A stretch of 62,093 nucleotides of DNA from an uncultured bacterium (GCA_965372795.1 CBDVDR010000020.1:1-62093), one strand, 5' to 3'; counted from the stretch's first letter, positions 28,572-58,866 are shown. Notes: a model not told the origin generated them from the sequence alone. Made by a program: numbers and translations.

Positions 28572-28958
28572 TCAAATAAAGTAAAATACTAATACTAATA
28601 TTTCAAAACATACAACTGGATAAATGAAAATTTTCTTTTTTCTTTTCAAATTAGATAAGCAATATTCTATTCTATCTGGTATATTTAATTTTTCTACCCA
28701 CATTATAATATTTACTATAAAAAAAAGTATAACCATAATTATATTAATTATCATTATAGTATCTTTCATAAGTTGTTCTAAAGATTTTTCAGCCAAAATT
28801 TCTTCTAAAATCACCGGAATTCCAATTCGTCTTCTGATAAAAATATAAATTCCTAAAAGAAATAATGAACTTAAATACATGAAGATTGTAAATACTATCT
28901 CTTTAAATTTTCTTACGTGTTCATCTTGAATTGTATTTTCACTTTGTTTGTTTTCCAT
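28572..28958 (-). CDS. Hypothetical membrane protein (array 1 cargo)
   Basis: AT-rich, three TM segments; start reassigned to ATG 28958 (SD AGAGG) because the longer ORF runs into the repeat. Confidence 0.65.
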   Translation of the reverse strand: MENKQSENTIQDEHVRKFKEIVFTIFMYLSSLFLLGIYIFIRRRIGIPVILEEILAEKSLEQLMKDTIMIINIIMVILFFIVNIIMWVEKLNIPDRIEYCLSNLKRKKKIFIYPVVCFEILVLVFYFI

Positions 28959-28982
28959 CGAACCTCTATATCTCTGTGACCC

Positions 28983-29054
28983 GCAGACGCCCTCGTCTGC
29001 CCCTTTCAATAATTGTCAGAAGCACATCCGCCTAGGCGGACTGACCTACTCAAC
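28983..29054. repeat. REP-like doublet R1
   Basis: GCAGACG-CCCT-CGTCTGC hairpin plus GTCAGAAGC...CTGAC-CTAC-TCAAC, with nested palindrome TCCGCCTAGGCGGA. Confidence 0.85.
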
Positions 29055-29056
29055 TA

Positions 29057-29962
29057 TTACCACTTTATCGGAACAAATTCTGATTTAAATGTGTTATCAT
29101 CTATATTTCCGATGATAATAACAAGTGTATCTCTGGCTTCTGCAAATGAGTTTATCCAAAAGGGTGATTTATAATTTGTTATTTTTTCTAATCCTTTATC
29201 TTTAGAATACATCCAAATGTTAGCTAAATCATCGTCAGTAAAATTTCTTCTAAGAAATAAAACAGGAAGGTTAGAGTTTTTTTGGTAAGGTCCAACATCA
29301 TGCGTTTGAGTAAAATAGGGTACATCTAAATAGTTTTTATTAATATCATAAATTCCAATATTGGAATAAGATTCATCTCCATCTGGATTATCTACACTTA
29401 TTTCCAAGAGTAAATTTTTCCCATCTCCAGAAAAACCTGAAATATTTGTATTATCAACAGAAAGTAATGTATCAACACTCTCTTGTCCAATTTTAACTAA
29501 TAATGTTCCTCCTTTTAAACCTGTTGTAGAAAAAGTTATCAAAGAGTCTTTCATGTTTACATCATAAATATCCGTAAATATTTGAAATCTATTCGAATCA
29601 GTCATGCATGAAGTGAAAAAAGTATCAATGACATTAGACTCAGAAATTGTAAGCTCAATGAAATAATAACAATATTCATCATCATTAATATAATAAAATT
29701 TATTAGGATCTTTTCCTACAATTCTTGAATCTGTATAAATAGAATCAAGAACAGTATAATCGATATAATTGTTTGAATCATATTCGACTACATAATATTT
29801 ATTTAATTCTGTCTTAGAATCCCTTTCTTTAAATAAAAAGACATATTTTATTTTCACAAATTCTCTTAAGTTAATAGAGTTTTCAGTAGAACAAGCGATA
29901 ATATTTATTAAGAGAGATATAATAAATAATATATAATATTTTCTAATGCATTTGATTTTCAT
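29057..29962 (-). CDS. Hypothetical lipoprotein (array 1 cargo)
   Basis: SD GGAGG before ATG 29962; signal peptide with lipobox-like IIAC; beta-rich body. Confidence 0.7.
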   Translation of the reverse strand: MKIKCIRKYYILFIISLLINIIACSTENSINLREFVKIKYVFLFKERDSKTELNKYYVVEYDSNNYIDYTVLDSIYTDSRIVGKDPNKFYYINDDEYCYYFIELTISESNVIDTFFTSCMTDSNRFQIFTDIYDVNMKDSLITFSTTGLKGGTLLVKIGQESVDTLLSVDNTNISGFSGDGKNLLLEISVDNPDGDESYSNIGIYDINKNYLDVPYFTQTHDVGPYQKNSNLPVLFLRRNFTDDDLANIWMYSKDKGLEKITNYKSPFWINSFAEARDTLVIIIGNIDDNTFKSEFVPIKW

Positions 29963-29976
29963 AACCTCCGTTATTG

Positions 29977-30043
29977 GCAGACGCCCTCGTCTACCCCGTT
30001 CTCTTATGATGTCAGGAGCGCACGGCTCCAAACCTACTCAAAC
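29977..30043. repeat. REP-like doublet R2
   Basis: GCAGACG-CCCT-CGTCTAC plus GTCAGGAGC-GCACG-GCTCCAAAC-CTAC-TCAAAC. Confidence 0.85.
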
Positions 30044-30055
30044 TAAATTTTAAAT

Positions 30056-30220
30056 TCAATTTCTATTTAAAAAGGATCCTAGTAATACTAGAACAAATGT
30101 AATACTAAATAGAATAATTCCTATATAGTTAGGAGGGGATAATATTATTATCAAACAGAAAAATATTGTACTAATAATTAAAGTAGCTAATATTATAAGC
30201 AGTCTTTTTTTTTGATCCAT
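30056..30220 (-). CDS. Small two-TM membrane protein, 54 aa, not in the ORF track (array 1 cargo)
   Basis: MDQKKRLLIILATLIISTIFFCLIIILSPPNYIGIILFSITFVLVLLGSFLNRN*; fills the interval between R3 and R2; purine-rich GGAAGAAGA before ATG. Confidence 0.6.
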   Translation of the reverse strand: MDQKKRLLIILATLIISTIFFCLIIILSPPNYIGIILFSITFVLVLLGSFLNRN

Positions 30221-30236
30221 TCTTCTTCCATAGTCA

Positions 30237-30300
30237 GCAGACGTCCTCGTCTGCCCCGTTCAATAATTGTCAGGAGCACACGGCTCTTGACCTACTCGAC
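30237..30300. repeat. REP-like doublet R3
   Basis: GCAGACG-TCCT-CGTCTGC plus GTCAGGAGC-ACACG-GCTCTTGAC-CTAC-TCGAC. Confidence 0.85.
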
Positions 30301-30329
30301 TATATTTAATTGCTGTAATTTCATTTTCA

Positions 30330-31010
30330 TTATTTTAATAATTCATCTTCCCACTTTTTTTGACTTTCATTCAATTCTATAACAATATCATCTAACTCAT
30401 TATATTCTATAAATATCTTGTTATATTCTGATACATCCAGAATTGGTTTTAATGTTGGACCGATTACATACAGTATTTTCATTGACATAATCATTAGTCT
30501 TATTAAAATTTGTCCCAATGATAATATTAACATGTCATCTATTACTGGATTCATTCTTGAAACAGAAGAACATTTCTCTACAAACCGTGAATTAGCATGA
30601 GTTACATCACTCCAATCAGAATATGTGTCCTCCCAAGTAGGTATCCCTTGACTTTCAAAGAATTTACCAATAGTCTGGGGTCTAATTTCTTTGCCTCTTA
30701 ACCATTTTTCATATTCATCGCTGTTTTTTGAAAGATAAAAGAATAGGTGAGCATATTCCAAATACCACCTTAGCAAAACGATAGATTCAGAAATGTTACC
30801 ATTCTTTAGAATTAATATAATTGCATCTGTTGATTCGTAGCTTATTCGATTAAACTGCAGTGCCGTTTCAATAAAATTGTCATTTTTGTGGCCGTTCTCT
30901 TTAATAATTTTGGATAGAGTTTTTCCACATAAATTTGTTAGTTTCTTAATTCTTTCTACTGTCTCAACCAATTCAGAAAGTTCAGATTGAAGTATTTTTT
31001 CAAATTTCAT
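30330..31010 (-). CDS. Hypothetical protein, DUF5677-like (array 1 cargo)
   Basis: LLRWYLE and Y..WSDVTHAN motifs; start at MKFEKIL behind AGAAGGAAAG. Confidence 0.6.
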   Translation of the reverse strand: MKFEKILQSELSELVETVERIKKLTNLCGKTLSKIIKENGHKNDNFIETALQFNRISYESTDAIILILKNGNISESIVLLRWYLEYAHLFFYLSKNSDEYEKWLRGKEIRPQTIGKFFESQGIPTWEDTYSDWSDVTHANSRFVEKCSSVSRMNPVIDDMLILSLGQILIRLMIMSMKILYVIGPTLKPILDVSEYNKIFIEYNELDDIVIELNESQKKWEDELLK

Positions 31011-31038
31011 TTCTTTCCTTCTTTCAAAAACTACTATT

Positions 31039-31959
31039 TTAATTTTCAAGCATCGAAAACAGTGAAACTATATGTTCTTCTTCTTTTTCAAAACATGTAT
31101 GCAATTTGTAGTCGGAGATTATAGCTTCTAGAAAGTCTCTTCTTCCATGTGCTACAAATCGTTTTGCTCGTTTAATCATTCCTGAACCAAGTTGAATAAG
31201 GAATTCAGGTGGAAGCGTTTTACTAATGGATTTGTCCGTTGCAACGACCATAATCCTTCCTGATATTGGAAAGATGAACTCATTTAAACACCTTTTTAGA
31301 TCATGGTCATATACACTTCTTGTCACAATTGGATTGTCACCGACTAAATTCCAATTACTCCCATCACCAGCATATAAAAACTTCCAATTTCGTAATTGAT
31401 CTGACCAATTTTTCTCAATAAACGGTGCAAAAGGTGCTATCAACCTTGTGTTTTTTTTGAAAGCTGGTGACTCTCTGAGCTTAGCTTTTACTTCCTCAGG
31501 AGCATCTTGTCCTTGCTTATCTGTCAAGGAAACAAATGGTAGCTCACCATTCATATTGAATATTTCATTTGACAACTTATCTATATGTTTAGAATTACTC
31601 GGTAATCTCCAATGAAGAATTAGCAGAAAATTGAATAGATGCATTTTATCAGGAAGTTCAATTGCTTTTTGGGGTTGTGATTCTCGAATTCTATCAAGTG
31701 TTTTCCAAAAACTATTCTCGGTTTTTGTATATAGTTTTTCCAAAGAGTCTGATTTCTCACCATTCTCAAGAACAATGGTATTCAGATCGTTCATAAAAAA
31801 TAAATTACCAGGCGGCAATGGATCCGGTAAAATTCTGTCTTCTTGTTTGTCATAGACATATAGAAGATTTTGAGAATTTGTAAAACCCTCAAGGTAATAT
31901 CTGGGTAAATAATGATGCTTTTTACTTCGATTATTTTTTTTAGATTTTTTCATAGTCAT
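31039..31959 (-). CDS. DUF4238 family protein (array 1 cargo)
   Basis: N-terminal KKHHYLPRYYLEGF, later GDNPIV and FPIS motifs. Confidence 0.8.
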   Translation of the reverse strand: MTMKKSKKNNRSKKHHYLPRYYLEGFTNSQNLLYVYDKQEDRILPDPLPPGNLFFMNDLNTIVLENGEKSDSLEKLYTKTENSFWKTLDRIRESQPQKAIELPDKMHLFNFLLILHWRLPSNSKHIDKLSNEIFNMNGELPFVSLTDKQGQDAPEEVKAKLRESPAFKKNTRLIAPFAPFIEKNWSDQLRNWKFLYAGDGSNWNLVGDNPIVTRSVYDHDLKRCLNEFIFPISGRIMVVATDKSISKTLPPEFLIQLGSGMIKRAKRFVAHGRRDFLEAIISDYKLHTCFEKEEEHIVSLFSMLEN

Positions 31960-32062
31960 AATTCATTTTCCCCCGACTACCCCACCACTTGCTATGGCAT
32001 AAGTAATTATCTTCACACTTTTTCACCGAATTAATCCTCCTGCGTATTCTCATCATGTGATA

Positions 32063-32091
32063 AATATATAAAAAATAGAATAAAACATCAA
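32063..32091 (-). promoter_or_regulatory. Putative sigma70 promoter heading array 1
   Basis: Minus strand TTGATG-N17-TATATT. Confidence 0.5.
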
Positions 32092-32110
32092 CTTAATAAC
32101 ACAAGTTCAA

Positions 32111-32171
32111 GTATGGCAGCATCCCTGTGATGCTGCCAAAAAATGGCGGGATCGCAGGGATCCCGCCCTAC
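32111..32171. repeat. Inverted REP doublet (REPIN-like)
   Basis: GTAT-GGCAGCATC-CCTGT-GATGCTGCC-AAAAAAT-GGCGGGATC-GCAGG-GATCCCGCC-CTAC. Confidence 0.85.
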
Positions 32172-32190
32172 TTAAGCAATCACTCCTGTG

Positions 32191-32269
32191 CAAATTCACT
32201 ACCTAATCATTGATGATTACGATTCTATCACCCTTTATAAAAGGAGGCACGAAGAGCTATGTCCAAAAT
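32191..32269. repeat. Conserved array-leader block, copy 1
   Basis: Ungapped match to 53271..53349; the last 39 nt are 31/39 identical by manual count. Confidence 0.7.
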
Positions 32270-32346
32270 TCTAACCACAAAAATTGAGAAACCAAACTAA
32301 ATGAAAAACACAAAATGTTCCTTTAAAGTACTTTAAGTACAAAAGT

Positions 32347-32399
32347 GAGCAAACGAACCCATTTCTGCGTATTCAAATGAAGCCGTATAAGTTACATGG
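32347..32399. repeat. 53-bp conserved site, copy 1
   Basis: GAGCAAACGAACCCATTT-N4-GTA-N20-TTAC; also at 53601 and 53814. Confidence 0.75.
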
Positions 32400-32455
32400 A
32401 AAAACAATGAAGATTTGATATAAAAACACACACAATGTGTGTCACACGAAGTGTG

Positions 32456-48027: not shown

Positions 48028-48098
48028 TATCCATAACTTTATCGTTAGTCTTGTGTCTAAAACTTGACATAGAGACAACTCTTGTCTTTTATTTACCT

Positions 48099-50177
48099 AT
48101 GTCTAATTTATCCTTTTCAAAAAAAACCAAGCTGTCCTATATCTACCCCAGCCTGTTTTTATTCTCAACCTACCTCCTCAGCCTGCTCCTCTTTTTCACC
48201 TACCGCCTCTATTTCATCCAATCCTTCGCAGACCGCTTGCTTGATGAAACACTCTGGGAAATCGCCGACTGCTTCCTCACCGGACTGCGGTTCGACACCC
48301 TCATCACAGCCTATTTCCTTTTCCCGTTAGTTCTCGTTTTCCCCTGGCTCAGACTTCAAAACAAATATGTCAAAATCCTCACTCTGATTTACCTGCCCGC
48401 CATCTTCTCCTTCACAACTATCGCCCTTCTTGCCGATGTCGGTTTCTACCGCTTCTTCGACACCCACTTAAACTACCTCGCCTATGAATACATCGGGGAG
48501 GGCGCCCTGTTTGCTGATCTGGTCGTATCATCCCCCAACTATTTTGAACGATTAGTCGCCTGGGTAATCATTTCAATAATTCTATTTTTCGCTATAAAAT
48601 TCCTTTATAACTATTTCAAAAACCGCGAACCGGTCAATGCCCCTTACAAAATCACCCCTCGCCTATTTATCTGGCTGGCACTGATTGTACTCTCTTTCAT
48701 AGGTGCGCGCGGAAGACTCGGACTTGCCCCTTTAGACTGGGGAGCCGCCTTCAAAAGCCAAAACCACTTCGTCAATCAAATCCCCCTCAACGGCTTATAC
48801 ACTCTCTCCCGCTCCTACCTTGAGGATGACCACGACCCGCGCCTTGTCTATCTGGATGAAAACGACCGCTTCCCATTCATCGACTCAGACTCAGCCTTAA
48901 ACTATGTCAGGGAAACATTAATTAACGACAATGAAAATTATTTAGATGATACCAGTCTATTTCGGACTGTTAATTCATCTGATTTATACGGGCATGATTT
49001 CAAAGTCAATGTTGTGATTGTCCTGATGGAAAGCTGGCCTGCGCGCAACACCGGACTGTTGGAACGACGAGATCAACCGTTGAACCTCACCCCCAATTTT
49101 GACCGGCTTGCTTCTGAGGGGATTTTGTTCACCAATTTTTATGCTAACGGTACCCGCACCAACTATGGACTCGGCGCCACGCTCTGCTCTTTCCCATCCC
49201 TGCCCGGTCGTGCGATTCTGAAACGATACAACGCCAACCATCCTTTTAGAACCCTGTCCGAGATACTTAGCGAACGGGGTTATTTCAATCTGTTTGCCTA
49301 TGGCGGTGATCTGCTTTTTGATAATGTCGAGGGCTTTTTTAAACAGAAAAAATATGACCGTTTTCTCAGTGTCGATGATTTCGGGTCGGAAAATGAATTT
49401 TCAAAATGGGGTATCCCCGATCAGATTCTTTTTGAAAAGGTTGCCCTGCAATTTGACTCGCTCCCCCGTCCGTTCAATCTCACCATGCTGACGTTGTCCA
49501 ACCATGAACCGTTTGACCTGCCCGATTCTTCGATGCGGAGATTCATGGATAACTCGGACAGTTCCAAAATTTACAACGCCCAGATTTATGCCGACTTCGC
49601 TTTAGGCGAGTTTATTGAATTGATAAAACAACACCCCGTGTCTGATAGTACGATTTTTGTTCTCACCGCTGACCATTGTAAACTTCTCCCCCATCAACGG
49701 TTTTTGATCCCCGACAATTTCCACATCCCCCTTCTTATTTACTCACCTAATAAGAATTTAATTAATGATAAACGTGACGAAGTCACTAATCAAAGTAACG
49801 CAGTTACAGGAAGCCAAGTAGACTTACTCCCGACAATCATGGGATTGCTAGGCGGTGAGTATACGCATTCTAATTGGGGACGCGACTTATTGAACCTTCC
49901 CGGTCGTAAAGAAGACATTGAAAATAATAATACGATTAATAATCGTCGAGGGTTTGCAATTTTCAATTCAGCTAATCGGATTGGTTATGTTGATGACGAA
50001 TTCTTTTATGCTGAACGCTTGGGCATCGTGACCGAGTTTTACGAACTGGAAAGTTTGCGTAATCGGATTTATGAGGATGTGACGGATAAATATCCAGATA
50101 GATTTAACTGGATTCAGAGTAAAATCCATAACTACATGCAGACCGCCGACCAACTCTCCACACCGAGAACGCAATAA
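48099..50177 (+). CDS. LTA synthase / sulfatase-like membrane protein
   Basis: N-terminal TM domain (GLRFD), NVVIVLMES, NGTRT, TLSNHEPF, TADH, HIPLLIY. Confidence 0.9.
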   Translation: MSNLSFSKKTKLSYIYPSLFLFSTYLLSLLLFFTYRLYFIQSFADRLLDETLWEIADCFLTGLRFDTLITAYFLFPLVLVFPWLRLQNKYVKILTLIYLPAIFSFTTIALLADVGFYRFFDTHLNYLAYEYIGEGALFADLVVSSPNYFERLVAWVIISIILFFAIKFLYNYFKNREPVNAPYKITPRLFIWLALIVLSFIGARGRLGLAPLDWGAAFKSQNHFVNQIPLNGLYTLSRSYLEDDHDPRLVYLDENDRFPFIDSDSALNYVRETLINDNENYLDDTSLFRTVNSSDLYGHDFKVNVVIVLMESWPARNTGLLERRDQPLNLTPNFDRLASEGILFTNFYANGTRTNYGLGATLCSFPSLPGRAILKRYNANHPFRTLSEILSERGYFNLFAYGGDLLFDNVEGFFKQKKYDRFLSVDDFGSENEFSKWGIPDQILFEKVALQFDSLPRPFNLTMLTLSNHEPFDLPDSSMRRFMDNSDSSKIYNAQIYADFALGEFIELIKQHPVSDSTIFVLTADHCKLLPHQRFLIPDNFHIPLLIYSPNKNLINDKRDEVTNQSNAVTGSQVDLLPTIMGLLGGEYTHSNWGRDLLNLPGRKEDIENNNTINNRRGFAIFNSANRIGYVDDEFFYAERLGIVTEFYELESLRNRIYEDVTDKYPDRFNWIQSKIHNYMQTADQLSTPRTQ

Positions 50178-50224: not shown

Positions 50225-51655
50225 TTATGAATCAATTACTTCTGTCCATTGCGAATAATGTTTCTTAGTTGATAAATCAGTTGCTTTTTTATTAAGCTTT
50301 CCGGTCATGGCCAATGCTTCTAATTTCCATGAAATTTCATATTGATAATTTTTGTTGTCTTCTTTTAAAAGTAAGTATCCTTGTTTAGAGTAACTTCTTA
50401 GAAGTGTATCAAAGCCAGATGCAGATTTGTAGCCAAATATTTTATAATTATAATTGGAAACAAACCCTTTTAAATATAATTTTGATAATATTTTCTTATC
50501 TTTAGGTTTCATTATAAGTTCAGAAGTTTCTTCTTCACAAAATTCAAATAAATATCTAAATGTATCATCAATTGATAATTGGTCATATAAAATAATATAT
50601 TGAAAGGCTCTAAATGTTAAATCTGTGTATATTCGAAATGTTTCCCTAAGTTCAAAATGAGCAAATTCATAGATCATCAAGTGAGATTTTTCATCTAGTG
50701 GAGTCATGAATTTGTAATTATTTGTGTATTCAAGATGATATCTTTTTTTTCTAATTTTGTTCTTTTGACTAGTGATTTCTTTAATCATTTCAGGATCATT
50801 AATGCTAAACATTCTTGATCTTGTATCAATTGCGGTAAGGAAAGCTTTATTCGACAATCGATTAAGTCTTATTTGAGTACCGGTAAAAAAACCTCTCAAA
50901 CGTCGACTTCTCACATTTAAATTGTTCCCTAACTCTCTGTTTCCAATAAGAATCCAATGGACGTTTTCTTTTATCAAAAAATCATCTCTAATCTCATCAA
51001 GAATATTGACTATTTGATTACTATCAACAATATCAAGGTTATCAATCAAAAGAAAGACACCATCATATCCACTATATTTTAAGAAAATTTGTAAAATAAA
51101 ATCAAAAGCATAAATAGGATCTCTCAATTCCTGAAATGAATAAGTCGCTGATTGTTTCGAAAATTGTCCGCCAGATCCTAAAAAAGTAGCACCTAATGAA
51201 CCACTAGTAGTTGAAACTTGTTTTTTTATTTTTATCCAATATTCTAAATGATCTAATAGTTCATCAGGGATATCTAATTCATTTTCTCTGTAGTAATTAT
51301 AGATATTATTTGACAGAACTTTAGTAATTTTATAAGTAAATGATTCATAGTTATCATCATTATTTATTTGAATTGATCGAAATGAAGGTAATATTAATTG
51401 ATTTTTTTCAATATCAAGTTCTCCATTTATTTGTGGTCGATAACATATATATTGGCAAATATTTATAAAGCTCGTTTTCCCTACTCCTACATCATCACTT
51501 ATTATCTTTATAGATCTTTTTTCACCTAAAATTTCAGAAATATAAGTATTGATTTCAATTTCCCTTCCCAACAATAACTTCTTTCCATCTGCATTTATTT
51601 GAAGAGGGTCACAGAAATAGATATTTTTATTAAATCCTAGTAATTTCCAATTCAT
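50225..51655 (-). CDS. P-loop NTPase with probable C-terminal winged helix (array 2 cargo)
   Basis: LLGRE, Walker A-like SDDVGVGKTS, Walker B LLIDNLD; AT-rich. Confidence 0.7.
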   Translation of the reverse strand: MNWKLLGFNKNIYFCDPLQINADGKKLLLGREIEINTYISEILGEKRSIKIISDDVGVGKTSFINICQYICYRPQINGELDIEKNQLILPSFRSIQINNDDNYESFTYKITKVLSNNIYNYYRENELDIPDELLDHLEYWIKIKKQVSTTSGSLGATFLGSGGQFSKQSATYSFQELRDPIYAFDFILQIFLKYSGYDGVFLLIDNLDIVDSNQIVNILDEIRDDFLIKENVHWILIGNRELGNNLNVRSRRLRGFFTGTQIRLNRLSNKAFLTAIDTRSRMFSINDPEMIKEITSQKNKIRKKRYHLEYTNNYKFMTPLDEKSHLMIYEFAHFELRETFRIYTDLTFRAFQYIILYDQLSIDDTFRYLFEFCEEETSELIMKPKDKKILSKLYLKGFVSNYNYKIFGYKSASGFDTLLRSYSKQGYLLLKEDNKNYQYEISWKLEALAMTGKLNKKATDLSTKKHYSQWTEVIDS

Positions 51656-51698
51656 GATATCCTACATATTTTTCAAGGTGTTTATTCTCTTAATCTTC

Positions 51699-51760
51699 GT
51701 AGGTCGAAACCCCTGCGGTTTCGACAATTGTTCGGCAGGATCGCAAGGATCCTGCCCTAC
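51699..51760. repeat. Intact inverted REP doublet (REPIN-like)
   Basis: GTAG-GTCGAAACC-CCTGC-GGTTTCGAC-AATTGTTC-GGCAGGATC-GCAAG-GATCCTGCC-CTAC. Confidence 0.9.
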
Positions 51761-51776
51761 ATGGTCTGACCTTTAT

Positions 51777-52394
51777 CTAATCTTTTCTATATAATTCTAT
51801 TGTAACAAATTCATCTTCTATCTTTGTACAATAAATATTGAAAACCATATCTCCTATTATCAAAGGACTATATTTATTGAGAGAGAGAGGTAAAAAATAA
51901 CGATATACCACACAATTTGAATCTAAAGGATCACTGAAATACAAATCATAACCATAACATGTATCAATGTATATTGTTAAATGACTATAACCTTCTTTTC
52001 TCTTTTGACAGGCACCCGTTAAAATCTTACCATAAATTGAAATTTTGTCATTTCCAAAAGGTACGTCAAATTCTCCCCATAGTGTACCGAAGTCACGCAT
52101 TTGTTCGATTGAGTCTTTAAAAATATTAACTTCCGTTGTCATTTGTGACACTTGTTTCTGTAGACCATCTATTTTTGTGTCTTGATCAAGATAAATGCGG
52201 TCATATGACTTTCTTGTTTGGTCCAAAACAGATGGTAAAAATAAATACCAAGAGATTACTGCAGCTAAGCCAAATCCTGTAATAAAATACCAAGCTCTAT
52301 GTCGCTTACCGAACCAAATGTCTGTTTGTTTTGAAAGAGGATGTTTATCATATTCATTTTGATGAGAATCGAGTTTATTGTTTTCATCTTTCAT
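51777..52394 (-). CDS. Hypothetical membrane-anchored protein (array 2 cargo)
   Basis: 205 aa, one TM segment plus coiled coil; SD AAGGAG. Confidence 0.7.
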   Translation of the reverse strand: MKDENNKLDSHQNEYDKHPLSKQTDIWFGKRHRAWYFITGFGLAAVISWYLFLPSVLDQTRKSYDRIYLDQDTKIDGLQKQVSQMTTEVNIFKDSIEQMRDFGTLWGEFDVPFGNDKISIYGKILTGACQKRKEGYSHLTIYIDTCYGYDLYFSDPLDSNCVVYRYFLPLSLNKYSPLIIGDMVFNIYCTKIEDEFVTIELYRKD

Positions 52395-52450
52395 TCTTTA
52401 ACAATTCTCCTTAATAATTCTTCCTTAAGTACGACTATTTACAAACACTC

Positions 52451-52484
52451 GTAGAGCAGACTCGTTTGAGCTATTCTGACAATT
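52451..52484. repeat. Degenerate GTAG-footed REP
   Basis: GTAG-AGCAGA...TCTGAC-AATT between two cargo genes. Confidence 0.45.
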
Positions 52485-52511
52485 CCTTTTTAAGAAATAA
52501 ACAATATTTTA

Positions 52512-53141
52512 TTATTGTGCTATAAATTGTAAAAATGTAACTGTTCCAAAAAATAATGTTAATATCACGCCAATTATTGATATTGAAAAAGATACTTTAT
52601 TTCTACTTGTTTGTTTGATAATATTACCTTCCAAAACTTCTATTTCATCACCTAATTGTTTTAAAGAATTTAATGCTAAACCTTCATTTTTTATATCAAT
52701 GGAATGTTTTAGCATATTTAACAGATTACCTTGCTTACTTGAGATTGATGAAAATGGTTGAATTTTTTTTATCATATTGTAAATCTCAATTATTCTCTCT
52801 CTTAATTCGACTGGAGGTTCAATTTTAAAATTTTCTTTAAAAACTCTACTATCAGTTGTATCTATTGTTACTATTAAATCTTCTAAAATTTCAGATGAAG
52901 AGCGAAAATGCTCATTCAAATTGCTATATTTTTCTGCTAATCTTTTATGAAGCATTAGTACCTGATCTACACATTTTTCATTAACTTGGCAATTACTTAG
53001 TATTGAAATAATACCTTTACAAAATCGCCTTCTTGCAAATTTTGTTTGAAATTTCTTTTTAGTTATAAGAAATAAAGGTATATAAAACATCAGAATTACA
53101 ATAACTGTTAGATAAATCGCATAAATGGGTTCTCTATTCAT
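52512..53141 (-). CDS. Hypothetical membrane protein (array 2 cargo)
   Basis: 209 aa with N- and C-terminal TM helices; SD AAGGGG. Confidence 0.7.
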   Translation of the reverse strand: MNREPIYAIYLTVIVILMFYIPLFLITKKKFQTKFARRRFCKGIISILSNCQVNEKCVDQVLMLHKRLAEKYSNLNEHFRSSSEILEDLIVTIDTTDSRVFKENFKIEPPVELRERIIEIYNMIKKIQPFSSISSKQGNLLNMLKHSIDIKNEGLALNSLKQLGDEIEVLEGNIIKQTSRNKVSFSISIIGVILTLFFGTVTFLQFIAQ

Positions 53142-53216
53142 TTTTCCCCTTTCATTATTCTGATCAGTTAGATTTTTGTAGCATAAAATATAAAATTATC
53201 CCACGATTTAATTACA

Positions 53217-53245
53217 AATATACCGAAAATCACCCAACCTGTCAA
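53217..53245 (-). promoter_or_regulatory. Putative sigma70 promoter heading array 2
   Basis: Minus strand TTGACA-N17-TATATT. Confidence 0.65.
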
Positions 53246-53270
53246 CGTTATATTATCCCCCATCGCATTA

Positions 53271-53349
53271 CAATTTCCCCACATTATCAATGGTGAATGA
53301 GAACTCGCTCCCCTATATAAAGAGAGGAACGGGAAGTTATGTCCAAAAT
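53271..53349. repeat. Conserved array-leader block, copy 2
   Basis: Ungapped match to 32191..32269. Confidence 0.7.
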
Positions 53350-53374
53350 CGTATGTCTAAAAATCAATATTTAA

Positions 53375-53924
53375 GTGGGGTCGAGTCTGCCTGGGCGGGC
53401 TCGACGCCTTCAACATTAATGGCTGTCAGGCAGAGTCGCCTCACAGTTTTCGTAGGGCAGAACCCCGCCTTTGGCGGACTATTAGCCTTTAGTGGTTCTG
53501 CCAATCCGTCAGGAGCACAGAGCACCTGACCTACTCAACCTACAAAGAGAAAACCACACGAAGTATGCGAAGTATACAAAAACATGCAAAACATAAAAGT
53601 GAGCAAACGAATCCATTTCGCTGTACTGGACAACCCTCCAATGACTTACAACGATTTATTGTCGAAACTGCAGGAGTTTCGACCTACTCAACTACGAAGA
53701 TTGGGGCAGACGAGCACACGATGTGTGGTTGGCGTCTGCCGCCCACGAAAACATCGTCAGAAAAAAACACACGAAGTGTGCGAAGTATACGAAGTGTGCG
53801 AAAGTGTAAAAATGAGCAAACGAACCCATTTCGCTGTTAAAGCATGTCAGAGAATATGTTACAGCGAAAAATACCTATTATAGGAAAATTGGCAGATGTC
53901 AGGAGCACAGGGCTCCTGACCTAC
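53375..53924. repeat. Dense cluster of REP-like hairpins with two 53-bp sites
   Basis: REP hairpins at 53375-53405, 53452-53534 (doublet), 53661-53687, 53703-53746 and 53898-53924; 53-bp sites at 53601-53653 and 53814-53866. Confidence 0.85.
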
Positions 53925-53950
53925 TCAAGAAATCAAACAGGCTATGCCTG

Positions 53951-55474
53951 CTATCCCAAACTGCCGATTTCGGATTCGACCTCTTTGAGAATCTCGCAGG
54001 ATTTGACCAGCGCTTTCATATTGGTATGGTCGGGATACAATGGTCGGTCAATATCCAAAAACTCAACATGTCGCCGTACAACCTCTTTTGCTTTGGTCAC
54101 ACCTTTCCCAAAATTGTATTCGCGGAAATCCAAAGCCTGAGCCGCCGCCATAAACTCGATCCCCAACACGCCATAAGCATTATCAAGAATCTGGAAATTT
54201 TTAATGGCGGTGTTCATCCCCATCGAAACAAAATCTTCCTGATCAGCCGCTGCCGGAATCGATTGAATAAATGCCGGAGCCGACAAAATCCGCTGTTCGA
54301 CAATCTGCGCATCAGCGGTGTACTGACTCAGCATCATCCCGGAAAACATCCCGGCACCTTTAGTCAAAAACGCCGGTAACCCGACATTCAGAGCCGGATT
54401 ATTCAGACGGTTCATCCGCCGTTCCGACATCACACTAATCATCGTAATAGCCGCGCCGATCATATCCACCGGCATCGAAACAGGCGTACCCTGGAAATTG
54501 GCACCGGAAATCTGGGTGTTGTCTTCAGGGAAAAATATCGGATTATCCCCCACCCCGTTCAGTTCGATCTCGACCTGTTTGCGGGCGTATTCAATAGCAT
54601 CATGCACCGTCCCAATCACCTGCGGCGTGGACCGCATCGAGTAGGCATCCTGAACTTTACACGGGACTCTACCCTCTTCAAGGTCCCCGCCGGCAACCAG
54701 CATTTTGATTGCCTTAGCCGAACGTACCGCACCTTTGAACCCGCGGGCTTCATGAAGACGTGCCGAATATGGTTTCATGTTGGCTTTTAGAGCCTCAAGT
54801 GACATCGCGGCGGCAATTTCCGCCTGTTTGAGCCAACGTTCCGAGTCATACAGGAACAAAGCACTCATTGCAGTCAGCACATTTGAACCGTTAATAGTTC
54901 CTAAGCCATCACGCGCCATTAATCCGGGGGCTTTGATACCGGCTTTGTCGAGCGCATCTTTACCTTCTAAGAGTTCACCTTTGTAATAAGCCTTACCTTC
55001 CGCCATAAGAAGCAGCGCAATTTGTGACATCGGCGCCAGATCACCGCAGGCACCAACCGAACCAACCTGGCAGACAAACGGGGTGACACCCTTATTGAGC
55101 ATCTCAACTAAAGTCATAGTGATTTCAGAACGGATACCGGAATTTCCATGAGCATGAACATTGATCCGCCCCGCCATTGCACCGCGAACATATTCGAGTG
55201 GCATCGGATCGCCGATTCCGGCGGCGTGGTTGTAGATCAGATATTTCTGGAAGTCCTTGACCTGATCGTCATCGAGCACGACTTCTGAAAATTCACCGAT
55301 CCCGGTGTTGACACCGTACATGATTTCTTTAGCGTTGATTTTTTTCTCAACCATTGCCCGGCATTTTTTAATTCGGGCGAGCGCTTCGTGGTGAAGTTCG
55401 ACCGGTTCGTTGTTTCTGGCGATTGCAACCAGATTTTCGATTGTTAAATTTGATCCATCTAAAATTATAGCCAT
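53951..55474 (-). CDS. Aromatic amino acid ammonia-lyase (HAL/PAL/TAL family), MIO triad Ala-Cys-Gly
   Basis: YGVNTGIG, GSVGACGDLAP, QDAYSMR, DNP, GANFQG, QEDFVSMG. Confidence 0.92.
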   Translation of the reverse strand: MAIILDGSNLTIENLVAIARNNEPVELHHEALARIKKCRAMVEKKINAKEIMYGVNTGIGEFSEVVLDDDQVKDFQKYLIYNHAAGIGDPMPLEYVRGAMAGRINVHAHGNSGIRSEITMTLVEMLNKGVTPFVCQVGSVGACGDLAPMSQIALLLMAEGKAYYKGELLEGKDALDKAGIKAPGLMARDGLGTINGSNVLTAMSALFLYDSERWLKQAEIAAAMSLEALKANMKPYSARLHEARGFKGAVRSAKAIKMLVAGGDLEEGRVPCKVQDAYSMRSTPQVIGTVHDAIEYARKQVEIELNGVGDNPIFFPEDNTQISGANFQGTPVSMPVDMIGAAITMISVMSERRMNRLNNPALNVGLPAFLTKGAGMFSGMMLSQYTADAQIVEQRILSAPAFIQSIPAAADQEDFVSMGMNTAIKNFQILDNAYGVLGIEFMAAAQALDFREYNFGKGVTKAKEVVRRHVEFLDIDRPLYPDHTNMKALVKSCEILKEVESEIGSLG

Positions 55475-55739: not shown

Positions 55740-56597
55740 ATGTTTAACGGTGACAATTTGAGTTCATTTCTTAAAAATCAGATTTTTGTTTCCTTTGATA
55801 CAGAGACGACCGGTTTATGGGCTCCGGCTAATCGAGTAATTGAAATCGGGGCGGTTAAGTTCCGTTTAGGGTCTTCAGATAAGGAAACTTTTCAGACATT
55901 GATAAACCCTGAGCGAAGTATCCCTGAGGAAGTGATCAAAGTGCACGGAATAACCGATGAGATGGTTTCGGAGGCTGAGACAATAACACCGGTACTTAAT
56001 AGATTTATAGAATTTAGCGGTGATGATTCGATTTTGATTGCTCATAATGCGCCCTTTGATATTTCGTTTATCAGTTGTGAACTTGAACGGGCTGAATTGA
56101 ATTTTGGGAATAACCCGATCATTGACACGATTGATATTTATAAGCGGTTTGTACTTGAGTCAAAATCGATGTCGCTTTTGTCATTATCAAAACAATTCAA
56201 TATTGCTGATTTTCAAAATCATCGGGCGTTAGCAGATGCGGAGTTGGTGCGGGGACTATTTGAAAAAGCAGCTTCCCGATTTCCAATAGTTGAAAATCAG
56301 ATAGATTTTTTGAAACATCTGACAACTTATACAATGTCGGATTGGAAACAGACGATTACAGAGCTGCCTGAAACATATCAGCCTTTGGTTGACGCAAAAG
56401 ATACGAATCAGAAAGTTCGGATATTTTATGCCCGCGAGGGAGAGAAAACCCATCTTAGAGATGTCTGGCCGAAGCAATTTTATGGGTTAAAATCAAAGTA
56501 TTATATGAGAGCTTTTTGTGAAAAAGCGAATCATGAACGCACATTCAGGCTTGATCGAATTAAAGATATAGAATTTCCGGTTAAAAACAATCTTTGA
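55740..56597 (+). CDS. DEDDh (DnaQ-like) 3'-5' exonuclease fused to a C-terminal WYL domain
   Basis: FDTETTG, AHNAPFD, HRALADA; C-terminal IFY...RDVWP...YMRAFC...RTFRLDRI. Confidence 0.9.
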   Translation: MFNGDNLSSFLKNQIFVSFDTETTGLWAPANRVIEIGAVKFRLGSSDKETFQTLINPERSIPEEVIKVHGITDEMVSEAETITPVLNRFIEFSGDDSILIAHNAPFDISFISCELERAELNFGNNPIIDTIDIYKRFVLESKSMSLLSLSKQFNIADFQNHRALADAELVRGLFEKAASRFPIVENQIDFLKHLTTYTMSDWKQTITELPETYQPLVDAKDTNQKVRIFYAREGEKTHLRDVWPKQFYGLKSKYYMRAFCEKANHERTFRLDRIKDIEFPVKNNL

Positions 56598-56811: not shown

Positions 56812-58866
56812 ATGGAACAGAATAGTAATACTCAACCGAAATCAAATCATAATCTTCCAATATATTTTATTTATACCTGTACCCTGATTGCTTTTTTTGT
56901 CGCTTCATTTTTCCCTGAGAACAGAATATGGGGATTCAATAATTACGCCTACCTTCCGGATCTTTGGAAATACAGTTTGTTTCTATTTTTTCTGATTGTA
57001 CCTGTTCTTATTACATTTTTTTTAAACAGAGGACTCTCTACTGAGCTTAAGAAAGAATTATCAGACAGATATTTCTATATCATAAGTGGGTTGATAACAG
57101 CAGTTTTTGGGATTCTTTTTTATTTTTTCAGGGCAACAACTCATTTTTTAGGTGATGGTTATACAGTACTTTCAAATTTATCATCAGAAAATCCAATTCT
57201 TAAATTCCGTGAAATTGGTGAGTCTTTAACACACTTATGGGTTAAGGACATAATAGGAACGGGAGAAATTGCTGCCTTATTAAGTTTTCAAATAATTTCA
57301 ATTATTGCAGGTATATTATTCATTCTATCAACGATTTATTTTTCTCATACTTACTTCAATAATAGTATAAAGAGATTACTCTTTAGCGTTGGAATTCTAT
57401 CATGTGGTTATATGTTACTTTTCTTTGGATATGTTGAGTACTATTCCCTGTTTGTTGTTTCAGTATTACTATATACATACACAGGACTACTAATTACATC
57501 TAATAAATTCAATAAATATTTAATCATTCCAGTATTATTTATTTCAATATTTTTTCATGTTATCGGAACAACGTTAATTCCAAGTGCAATCTATTTATTA
57601 CTGAGAAACACAAAATTTGAATACAAAATTAAACACTTATCAGTTCGATTAAAAATCATATTATCATCTTTAATATTATTTTTTCTAATAGTTCTTTATA
57701 ACTATGTGGGATATAAATATTTATTTTTCAGGTTTGCAACGCTTCAACTTTTTGCAGACAATTTCACAGTTGAAGGATATACTCTTTTTTCAACAAATCA
57801 CATTATGGATTTCATTAATATATTTTTCTTTCTAATTCCAGCACTTCCTCTAATGATATTCCTATTATTTAAAAAAATTAGTATTAGAAGTTTTAAAAAG
57901 AACGAATACCGTTTTTTATTATTACTTTCCGTTTCAACTATCCTGGCAGTTTTTATTTTTGACCCAAAACTCGGAATGCCTCGTGACTGGGACTTGTTTT
58001 CATTTTCTGGAGTTCCATTTATGATTATTTTTTTAGTGCTTTATTTACAAGAGTTGAGACCCAGTTTGTCCCGTACAATCATAATCTTATCAATTTCCTT
58101 AAACTTATTTTTATTCATCCCGAAAGTTTATTGTCAAAGAAATTCAAGCGCTGCTATTGAACAGATAGAAATTTTCTTTTCCCTTGATAAAACAAAAAGT
58201 CGTCCGGGCTATAATATTCTGACTAACTATTATAACGATCAAAATAATTTTAAAAAGGCACAAGAGACACAGAAAAAGCTTGAAAATAAATACCCTGAAG
58301 TTCAGATGAACTATAATGCAACAATCTTCTTTGATGAAAATAAATATAACAAAGCTATATCTATTTATGAAAACATCATTTCAATTAACCCCATGTATGC
58401 AGATGCTTATAACAACTTGGGTGATTGTTTTTTATCATTAAATAAATTTGATACTGCAATCGCTTTGTTTAATATCTCATTGGGATTAAATCCACACAGA
58501 GAAATATTTTATTACAATCTTGGGTATGCATATTATTTTAAGAACGATTTTATCAATGCTGAAAACGCATGGCTTAAATCAATCTATTACGATAAGACAC
58601 AATTTGAACCAGTAGTTAATATAGCCCAGCTTTATAAAAAAATGGGTGACAACATTAAATACCTGGAATATTTAAAAAAGGCTGCCGAATTTGAACAAGC
58701 ACCTCATAATGTATTAGTGGAACTTGGGAATTTATATTTGAAAAAGGGTGATTTACAAAACGCCTGTCTTTACTATAAAAAGGCAATCGAAAGAGGATGG
58801 GACAGCAAACAAATTAACCCCTTGATAGAGCAATATCCAAATTTGAAATCGTATTTTTTCAATTAA
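56812..58866 (+). CDS. Multi-TM membrane protein with C-terminal TPR repeats (paralogue 1)
   Basis: Many TM segments, FLGDG, FFGYVE, DPKLGMPRDWDLF, TPR repeats. Confidence 0.8.
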   Translation: MEQNSNTQPKSNHNLPIYFIYTCTLIAFFVASFFPENRIWGFNNYAYLPDLWKYSLFLFFLIVPVLITFFLNRGLSTELKKELSDRYFYIISGLITAVFGILFYFFRATTHFLGDGYTVLSNLSSENPILKFREIGESLTHLWVKDIIGTGEIAALLSFQIISIIAGILFILSTIYFSHTYFNNSIKRLLFSVGILSCGYMLLFFGYVEYYSLFVVSVLLYTYTGLLITSNKFNKYLIIPVLFISIFFHVIGTTLIPSAIYLLLRNTKFEYKIKHLSVRLKIILSSLILFFLIVLYNYVGYKYLFFRFATLQLFADNFTVEGYTLFSTNHIMDFINIFFFLIPALPLMIFLLFKKISIRSFKKNEYRFLLLLSVSTILAVFIFDPKLGMPRDWDLFSFSGVPFMIIFLVLYLQELRPSLSRTIIILSISLNLFLFIPKVYCQRNSSAAIEQIEIFFSLDKTKSRPGYNILTNYYNDQNNFKKAQETQKKLENKYPEVQMNYNATIFFDENKYNKAISIYENIISINPMYADAYNNLGDCFLSLNKFDTAIALFNISLGLNPHREIFYYNLGYAYYFKNDFINAENAWLKSIYYDKTQFEPVVNIAQLYKKMGDNIKYLEYLKKAAEFEQAPHNVLVELGNLYLKKGDLQNACLYYKKAIERGWDSKQINPLIEQYPNLKSYFFN

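Follow-up and report, generated by a model that had tools for sequence, protein, structure and literature searches.

A non-coding leader related to the ends of a small gene accompanies low-GC cargo, including defence genes, in a Zixibacteria-type genome

Genes, promoter and hairpins of the sulfatase/hutH locus

The stretch of DNA analysed here, referred to as the window, is one whole contig of 62,093 nucleotides from an uncultured bacterium (GCA_965372795.1 CBDVDR010000020.1:1-62093). The subject of this report is the locus at positions 50225 to 53950, where three AT-rich genes, hereafter the cargo genes, are located between a sulfatase-family gene and the histidine ammonia-lyase gene hutH, together with a non-coding leader and several hairpins of the repetitive extragenic palindrome (REP) type. 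The assembly that contains the window is 3.35 Mb in size with 38% GC and a completeness of 98.65%, and its lineage would be of the Zixibacteria type, judging from the names of the closest homologues of ZixP, a small protein to which the leader is related (see below). An earlier note on the sequence of the window had described this locus as the second array of one recurring layout, in which co-oriented genes behind a common promoter are separated by REPs. We conclude that the finding is largely real and was understated, and that the shared leader, composed of a head module (modA) and tail modules (modB), is its key feature. The features of the locus are as follows (fold z, z-score of the predicted folding energy against shuffled sequences).

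48051..50177, plus strand: left flank, sulfatase-family membrane gene, lipoteichoic acid (LTA)-synthase-like (Pfam Sulfatase, 3.5e-38)
50225..51655, minus strand: cargo gene 1, 476-aa P-loop NTPase with ORC/Cdc6- and STAND-like predicted fold, 27% GC
51699..51760, no strand assigned: intact REP doublet, two hairpins with 9-bp stems in opposite orientation, bearing the head and tail tetranucleotides given in the earlier note (GTAG...CTAC; -20.1 kcal/mol, fold z -5.84)
51777..52394, minus strand: cargo gene 2, 205-aa ORFan with one hydrophobic segment, 31% GC
52512..53141, minus strand: cargo gene 3, 209-aa ORFan with N- and C-terminal hydrophobic segments, 25% GC
53217..53245, minus strand (53245->53217): sigma-70-like promoter reading into the cargo, 11 of 12 consensus positions, 17-nt spacer
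53271..53349, plus strand: modA, conserved head of the leader (nhmmer E 2e-19), one of 26 copies
53375..53540, no strand assigned: REP cluster, three hairpin elements, inserted right after modA (fold z -4.6, -3.5 and -4.4)
53595..53654, plus strand: modB copy 1, 3′-end module of a decayed gene (nhmmer E 1.8e-7; repeat family D8)
53658..53687, plus strand: REP, inverted partner (93%) of the left half of the 51699-51760 doublet (fold z -5.22)
53767..53781, minus strand: short hairpin with T-run, terminator-like for transcription from hutH towards the cargo (terminator scan)
53809..53870, plus strand: modB copy 2 (nhmmer E 3.5e-10)
53898..53924, plus strand: REP adjoining the hutH terminator (fold z -3.96)
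53951..55474, minus strand: right flank, core gene hutH (Lyase_aromatic 3.4e-156; NF006871 526.7 bits against a cut-off of 524)

The presence of three co-oriented AT-rich genes was confirmed, with minus-strand open reading frames (ORFs) of 476, 205 and 209 aa at 25-31% GC, and both Lyase_aromatic and NF006871 support the assignment of the ammonia-lyase gene downstream of which they lie. The sulfatase-family gene and hutH are convergent, so that their 3′ ends face each other with the cargo in between, and the GC content falls to 28-31% in the 50-53 kb stretch against 45% and 50% in the flanks and 38% in the genome. No family was assigned to the cargo genes in Pfam, NCBIfam, PADLOC and PHROGs searches, cargo gene 3 giving sub-threshold matches only, and the product of cargo gene 1 has only 4 homologues among 5.8 billion proteins. 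The AlphaFold2 (AF2) model of this product, with a predicted local distance difference test (pLDDT) score of 72.8, was compared with known structures using Foldseek; the top match was ORC2 (1w5t, E 2.8e-6), followed by Cdc6, CED-4 and plant resistosomes, and a total of 57 matches reached E<=1e-3, yet with low TM scores of 0.3-0.47. The model fits a defence-type NTPase but is no proof of one. This ORC/STAND-like fold is the sole sign of known defence at the locus, with zero PADLOC matches, whereas the sister loci described below are clear in this respect. We read the three AT-rich genes as foreign cargo, probably an anti-phage module around the ORC/STAND-like NTPase.

The proposed TTGACA-N17-TATATT promoter is the best sigma-70-like site of the region, though promoter-like matches are frequent in this AT-rich DNA (28 observed against 20.4 +/- 4.6 in shuffles). 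The REP cluster described at the head of the genes was borne out by several significant hairpins in the region 53142-53950 (fold z -3.5 to -5.2), and so was the intact doublet at 51699-51760, since its two 9-bp hairpins were equalled by 0 of 200 shuffles and both halves belong to the genome-wide REP list. By contrast, the degenerate REP claimed as a second separator at 52451-52484 folds no better than chance (-2.6 kcal/mol, z -0.16, equalled by 81 of 200 shuffles). The intergenic segment 52395-52511 matched only itself in the repeat comparison of the genome, and no REP was found between the sulfatase-family gene and cargo gene 1. Two 53-bp sites that had been noticed in the head region are probably the two modB copies of about 60 nt each. 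A further terminator-like hairpin on the hutH-to-cargo strand lies inside the leader at 53331-53306.

As a whole the head region is a mosaic of modules that recur at dozens of loci. Its modA corresponds to the promoter-like region and the start of a decayed ZixP-type gene pointing away from the cargo, and the alignment of this leader to other copies is interrupted at the REP cluster. The leader is shared with the first array of the window (repeat families D2, D8 and D9), as had been proposed:

28572..32455, minus strand: first array, same layout downstream of queA, with modB at 32341-32403 and modA at 32191-32269
Cargo of the first array: DUF4238 protein (31039-31959), sub-threshold DUF5677-like protein (30330-31049), and ORFs of 54, 301 and 128 aa

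In this array three co-oriented REP doublets separate small genes (doublet fold z -4.17). These doublets are of one composite type, 68-93% alike over 44 nt, and are located in 28983-30299, each of them after a small gene; this composite form is nearly restricted to the first-array locus.

The leader and its parent gene ZixP

The earlier note had suggested a genome-wide count of such loci. A search of this genome with nhmmer gave 26 copies of modA (about 80 nt) and 56 copies of modB (about 65 nt), which together mark 27 loci instead of two. modB always followed modA in the same orientation, in runs of 1-4 copies that are frequently interrupted by REPs, and the leader can be described as a non-coding element of about 270 nt with one head and 1-4 tandem tails. 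The 1 kb behind modA showed 34% GC or less in 17 of 25 copies, compared with 13% of all 1-kb windows (binomial p 3e-10), while beyond the modB run the corresponding 1 kb did so in a single copy of 25, being in most cases occupied by the 3′ end of a gene of normal GC content. Low-GC cargo correlates with the leader; it is the leader, not the REPs, that tracks the cargo. The proposal that recurrence of the layout points to a system is supported by 27 marked loci tied to low-GC cargo; the integron-like, REP-separated cassettes that it implied are not supported.

Defence genes were identified with confidence among the cargo of the sister loci, including GajA (839 bits) and GajB (413 bits) of Gabija, SduA (278 bits) of Shedu, HamA (342 bits) of Hachiman, a QatA/PDC-S20-type KAP NTPase and a PDC-M48B-like protein. 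Other cargo includes a Dcm+EcoRII+Vsr operon, two Fic proteins, a Panacea antitoxin, NB-ARC/TPR and LRR-Roc-COR proteins, and many ORFans. Leader subtypes are common to loci with unrelated cargo. The modA palindrome, a short one, has two halves that co-vary between copies, and ZixP (or modA) and the cargo are divergently arranged at most loci, the cargo being on the other strand at about a third of them.

The relationship of the leader to a gene was recognized in the self-comparison of the genome, which gave a 594-bp duplicate on contigs 1 and 2 (91% identical). This unit carries a modA variant at its start, a genuine ORF and modB at its end, where the modB core encodes the C-terminal motif; the same order, modA at the 5′ end and modB at the 3′ end, was observed in six other loci fetched. 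The product of the ORF, about 190 residues in length, is here called ZixP, a label coined for this study. ZixP has 189 homologues and a basic, strongly conserved N-terminus with ten invariant columns in 37 sequences, and its predicted structure is all-helical (pLDDT 84.6), with a basic N-terminal helix pair followed by long helices. For this protein there was no fold match at E<=1e-3 and no PDB profile match, and the ESM Atlas gave unnamed clusters only. The leader and the full ZixP unit have in common only about 45 nt at the promoter/5′ end and about 30 nt at the 3′ end. An identical-type middle block, unrelated to the ZixP unit, is present in 15 leader copies, which argues that one internally deleted ZixP derivative has multiplied. 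Judged by sequence comparison, the leader is a miniature, internally deleted derivative of ZixP, related to it as a miniature inverted-repeat transposable element (MITE) is to its parent element.

Several other identities of the leader were considered and rejected. A small peptide gene was ruled out, the apparent short ORF being without codon periodicity (equal substitution entropy at the three positions). For a structured RNA, no consensus fold was obtained on either strand and no Rfam match near threshold was found at five leader loci; in the Rfam search of the window only a tRNA was detected. Descent from the IS200-like copies on contigs 52 and 43 was ruled out by lack of similarity. The modB core was found on the sense strand of 0 of 47 tRNA/tmRNA genes, which speaks against a tRNA-tail mimic serving as a landing pad of serine recombinases, and its spacing and conservation, judged by eye only, do not fit a sigma-54, extracytoplasmic function (ECF) or Bacteroidetes-type promoter or a dif-like site.

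Some further repeats were noted in the course of this comparison. Contig 52 (1797 bp) consists of a Y1-transposase-like frame between 36-nt inverted repeats, unrelated to the leader, and is probably a collapsed multi-copy insertion sequence (IS). The NB-ARC/TPR cargo gene on contig 10 (46.8-49.1 kb) has an 85%-identical paralogue at an unmarked site on contig 4 (208.5-210.9 kb), the N-terminal parts of the pair being different. Another repeat family of 250-300 nt, 87-93% identical, is present on contig 13 (49.7-50.2 kb), contig 3 (82.2-83.4 kb) and contig 4 (14.66-14.91 kb), and begins at a REP of the first-array doublet type.

Distribution in the order and variability of the site

The 14-nt core of modB was detected in 86 of 159 other genomes of the order, with up to 54 copies; of 125 genomes from other orders of the class, only 3 contained it, each with a single match. 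The reversed core, used as a control pattern, gave zero matches in genomes of the order and single matches in four genomes of other orders. The core is conserved to the letter between families that share only about 80% identity in their hutH proteins, and when the whole leader was compared by BLAST with 40 relatives only a core of 23-25 nt was matched. Its occurrence is patchy within genera, as illustrated by 45 copies in one species and none in seven congeners. With the ZixP profile, matches were obtained in 86 of the 160 genomes of the order, 1-11 per genome and very frequently located at the end of a contig, and by hand tally both ZixP and the modB core were present in 67 genomes, ZixP alone in 19, the core alone in 20 and neither in 54.

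From the relatives 20 ZixP loci were fetched. On the modA side of these genes we found PifA (213 bits), PD-Lambda-5 A (411 bits) and B (420 bits), PDC-M36 A (532 bits) and B (147 bits), PDC-S39, a caspase with a ThsB-type Toll/interleukin-1 receptor (TIR) protein, an Old/AriA-like ATPase, pVip-like and dCTP-deaminase-like proteins, and a broken UvrD/PD-(D/E)XK gene. One relative of 55% GC (G099) was observed to carry a GC-rich form of the leader, in regular tandem units of 114 nt (L079 7990-8600 and L081 8080-8680); the unit has the conserved core at its start and a short GC hairpin at its end, and runs of it are often located just upstream of a co-oriented gene.

The hutH gene is present in 27 of 31 relatives searched and is adjoined by the sulfatase-family orthologue in 8 of 14 relatives' loci fetched, the synteny around it being kept across four families. 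In nine relatives the sulfatase/hutH gap ranged from 57 bp to 8.1 kb with unrelated content, as listed below.

G015: 57 bp
G024: 82 bp, with one REP of the type found in the window
Four genomes: 0.6-1.4 kb, unrelated single genes
Two genomes: 2.2-2.7 kb
G021: 8.1 kb

In G005, a species of another genus, the gap contains a TIR protein and a PDC-S36-type protein, with an inverted modB core adjoining the sulfatase gene, and its cargo is flanked by inverted ends; in G147, a second species of that genus, it contains a 145-residue ORFan with modB at the same place. The earlier note had remarked that cargo fixed and vertically inherited across relatives would speak against its proposal. At the level of the genus and above, the contents of the gap were found to differ, so that the proposal is not refuted there.

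As to the neighbourhood of hutH in the window, an RNase T-type exonuclease fused to a WYL domain (55740-56597) is encoded divergently from hutH and is kept in 9 of the 14 relatives' loci fetched. It is followed by two tandem paralogous genes for TPR proteins of 684 residues (56812-58866 and 58921-60975; 28-29% GC), with a DNA identity of up to 91% across the first 300 nt, and next by a 369-residue ORFan.

Possible explanations: mobile cassettes, gene exchange or regulation

Inverted ends were found to flank the cargo at six loci of this genome:

Contig 9: three genes including Shedu
Contig 23: a 371-residue ORFan
Contig 8: the Panacea pair
Contig 13: Dcm/EcoRII/Vsr
Contig 5: two Fic genes
Contig 1, 150-154 kb: an NB-ARC gene between a leader and an intact ZixP gene

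In addition, two inverted intact ZixP genes enclose 10.4 kb in the relative G129, where the cargo consists of dCTP-deaminase-like, pVip-like, methyltransferase and RelA/SpoT-like proteins and a GroES/GroEL pair (the latter at L104 6764-9122, contig 27). Because the ends are polar towards low-GC cargo and flank it in inverted orientation at these six loci, a composite-transposon-like reading is suggested. Foreign cargo would occupy a site of conserved position and variable content between the convergent sulfatase-family and hutH genes, with ZixP genes or their miniatures turning the modA side to the low-GC cargo and the modB side to the core gene. Cargo plus ends would then constitute non-autonomous carriers of defence genes, of the type of composite transposons or mobile insertion cassettes, which may have spread through one order of Zixibacteria by landing or recombining at intergenic sites downstream of core genes; they would be mobilised in trans at these intergenic hotspots, the ends serving as cis sites for movement by ZixP, a REP-associated tyrosine transposase (RAYT) or another enzyme. 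This proposal, in which the leader would be a ZixP miniature at a conserved hotspot and the REPs a separate layer, is in our judgement about evenly balanced between true and false, and is the most likely of the explanations considered. Bolder is the idea that the ZixP units are a new family of small mobile elements in one Zixibacteria order, in which a helical DNA-binding ZixP, alone or with a RAYT, recognises modA and modB, the miniatures behave like MITEs, and pairs of ends capture and move whole anti-phage systems; we put this forward tentatively and consider it rather doubtful.

A number of observations do not agree with mobile cassettes of this kind. The marked loci and their immediate surroundings yielded no transposase or recombinase; the four tyrosine and four large serine recombinases of this genome are located elsewhere, the serine ones adjoining tRNA genes, and an rve-type gene was not found in the genome. 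ZixP itself matches no known family and carries nothing marking an enzyme. The locus at hutH is a one-ended copy of the marked layout, modA and modB being present on the hutH side only, while no signal of either was obtained beside the sulfatase gene, even when every filter was disabled. Within one element the two arms (about 75-80%) are no more alike than copies at different loci, so that recombination fits as well as transposition. Target-site duplications were not found, although an analysis aimed at them would require empty sites from close strains; the only congener is a 540-contig assembly. A pattern scan of metagenome contigs gave two loci, both with only partial matches at the level of chance. 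The marker is present on only 15 of 223 low-GC islands of this genome, just core-like genes or small ORFans are found on the modA side at 5 of the 20 ZixP loci of relatives, and G099 carries several A-to-B units between core genes with no obvious cargo. Moreover, the kinship of the genomes and the location of the core within the ZixP gene inflate the association of ZixP with the modB core.

The REPs were analysed separately. A total of 73 hairpins with the REP tail tetranucleotide were counted genome-wide against 11-38 for six control tetranucleotides, and by their stems they fall into at least nine subfamilies that have one tail in common. A flank of 34% GC or less was found in 35 of the 73 compared with 21.9% of random positions, and 24 of the 73 are no more than 1.5 kb away from marked loci, the latter making up 3% of the genome; at the level of REP loci, 33 of 51 are away from any marked locus. 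Comparison of broad hairpin families with the GC content of 2-kb flanks was uninformative. In the relative G022 a Y1_Tnp ORF (RAYT-like, 5.1e-9) lies between inverted REPs whose stem type is that of the REPs at 51699-51728 and 53658-53687 of the window; in the window, this same-type inverted pair (93%) encloses cargo genes 2 and 3 together with the head of the leader. A single RAYT-like ORF (32.8 bits, cut-off 23) was detected in this genome, next to a REP cluster. We read the REPs as a separate, RAYT-driven layer that colonises leader DNA and the gaps between cargo genes, not as boundaries of cassettes. The RAYT-like ORF of this genome (contig 1, about 111.2-112.2 kb; L003 1100-2100) is itself bracketed by a different, longer hairpin repeat, in three direct copies and one inverted, with the REP cluster adjoining; this longer repeat was also observed inside two leader loci.

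The main rival to trans-mobilised cassettes is homologous exchange at a recombination hotspot, as in the model of Neisseria intergenic mosaic elements (NIME) and minimal mobile elements. According to this model, which we consider rather improbable here, the leader/REP mosaic and the core flanks would supply homology, RecA-type replacement would swap the cargo, and the repeats would grow as a by-product. It agrees well with the different cargo of relatives in the same syntenic gap, with leader subtypes shared by loci of unrelated cargo, with arms that are no closer within a locus than between loci, and with the failure to find a recombinase at the marked loci. It also has a precedent, since PMC1797815 proposes that NIME arrays promote the exchange of neighbouring genes, and places nearly all the unique restriction-modification genes inside two of these elements. 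Left unexplained by homologous exchange, however, are one deletion derivative at 26 copies in unrelated sites, the inverted end pairs around cargo at six loci, a 14-nt core letter-perfect across families, and a copy number that is patchy within genera. A purely regulatory role comes next in our ranking and is unlikely. ZixP would then be a DNA-binding regulator divergent from the cargo, the leaders would supply an operator/promoter and terminator-like hairpins that insulate toxic defence genes from read-through of core genes, the islands would stand under a few intact ZixP copies, and mobility would be incidental. The divergent arrangement of ZixP or modA and cargo at most loci, the co-varying halves of the modA palindrome, the two terminator-like hairpins of this leader on the hutH-to-cargo strand (53781-53767 and 53331-53306) and the basic helix pair predicted for ZixP are all in agreement with such a role, but the conserved modB core at the far end, the tandem copies and the inverted pairs are left without explanation, about one locus in three has its cargo on the other strand, and neither a consensus RNA structure on either strand nor an Rfam match was obtained.

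The picture of the earlier note, an integron-like array in which each gene is a REP-bounded cassette behind a common promoter, or in a bolder form one in which an HUH/RAYT enzyme cuts the REP tetranucleotides and shuffles the segments between REPs, is very unlikely in our estimation. The genes here are indeed co-oriented behind one strong promoter, three small genes of the first array are each trailed by a co-oriented REP doublet of one type, REP-like hairpins are enriched beside low-GC flanks (35/73) and near marked loci (24/73), and because of the same-type inverted pair around cargo genes 2 and 3, in a geometry as at the G022 RAYT, REP-based shuffling stays alive at low odds. In integrons, attC is one imperfect hairpin of about 57-141 nt after each cassette. 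The separators found here, in contrast, fold as two independent perfect hairpins of 7-9 bp. The best match to the integron integrase model TIGR02249 in the whole assembly was 86.5 bits against a cut-off of 265, and the matches to this model are ordinary Xer-like genes, as in all 14 control genomes. Furthermore, one claimed separator has no fold, no REP separates the sulfatase-family gene from cargo gene 1, REPs also occur away from cargo, and no cargo was found at two sites with REP-exact borders, the self-comparison of the genome giving only paralogous genes and the ZixP unit. The likeness to integrons or attC clusters is limited to small genes, mostly promoterless and all in one orientation, that follow a single promoter and have structured repeats in between; with no IntI found, no attC-type fold, and cargo that in several cases is a multi-gene operon (Gabija, Dcm/EcoRII/Vsr), the system is not an integron.

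Comparison with other known systems gave partial likenesses only. Mobile insertion cassettes and composite MITE elements consist of passenger genes between transposon-type inverted ends and are moved in trans. The marked loci resemble them at six sites, where cargo without a transposase lies between inverted, shortened derivatives of a longer unit, and differ in that the parent ZixP unit encodes no recognisable transposase and that most loci, including sulfatase/hutH, are one-sided. BOX elements of pneumococcus are modular repeats of the form boxA-boxB(n)-boxC, and the leader, with its one head module and variable tandem second modules in an intergenic position, is likened to them by architecture, not by sequence; we know of no description of BOX elements as gene-derived or tied to defence cargo. 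To our knowledge, REP-RAYT systems do not carry or bound genes. The hairpins described here have the properties of REP/REPIN elements, being many-copy, extragenic and GC-rich with a head and tail tetranucleotide, and the RAYT of G022 is flanked by inverted REPs. As in the REP/REPIN-RAYT systems of PMC3116915 and PMC3337134, short GC-rich hairpins with a conserved head/tail tetranucleotide form inverted doublets and flank a RAYT-like Y1 gene, while at least nine stem subfamilies with one tail, clustered inside leaders and between cargo genes, are peculiar to the present case.

The NIME arrays and minimal mobile elements, as presented in PMC1797815, are alike in the short inverted-repeat units with modular spacers that occupy intergenic sites beside variable genes, in the alternative gene sets, restriction-modification included, at one syntenic site, and in having no element-borne recombinase; different gene sets at one syntenic site were likewise observed in the sulfatase/hutH gap. 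The same paper states that NIME arrays had not been seen outside Neisseria. The present repeat is unlike NIME in that it is formed from the two ends of a protein gene, with a fixed polarity to the cargo and often in inverted pairs, in that the hairpins are RAYT-type REPs, and in that the lineage is Zixibacteria. Core defence hotspots, as described in PMC10250203, similarly concentrate diverse defence systems at a few conserved sites between core genes. Such hotspots are defined by their core flanks, whereas in the present case the cargo is accompanied to numerous sites by a lineage-specific non-coding repeat and a small companion gene. No account of a system like this was found in literature searches on Zixibacteria repeats and defence, on defence hotspots with inverted repeats or miniature elements, or on core defence hotspots.

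Defence genes are known to form clusters and to be mobile, but their mode of movement is clear for only a few carriers, such as prophages, satellites, integrons and Tn7-like elements, and here an uncultured phylum is seen to have many small defence islands that share a portable signature, the two ends of a tiny gene. If this signature is a site of mobility or regulation, it would provide a sequence tag for finding new defence systems of Zixibacteria, useful for discovery because many of the neighbours, including the three cargo genes at the hutH locus, are ORFans. On the same condition, ZixP with its 189 homologues would be a candidate new family of DNA-handling proteins, and the leader would provide, after that of Neisseria, a second case in which mosaic repeats of intergenic DNA are linked with gene exchange. 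Should the ZixP units indeed be mobile elements in their own right, this lineage would possess a dedicated, transposase-poor shuttle for defence genes.

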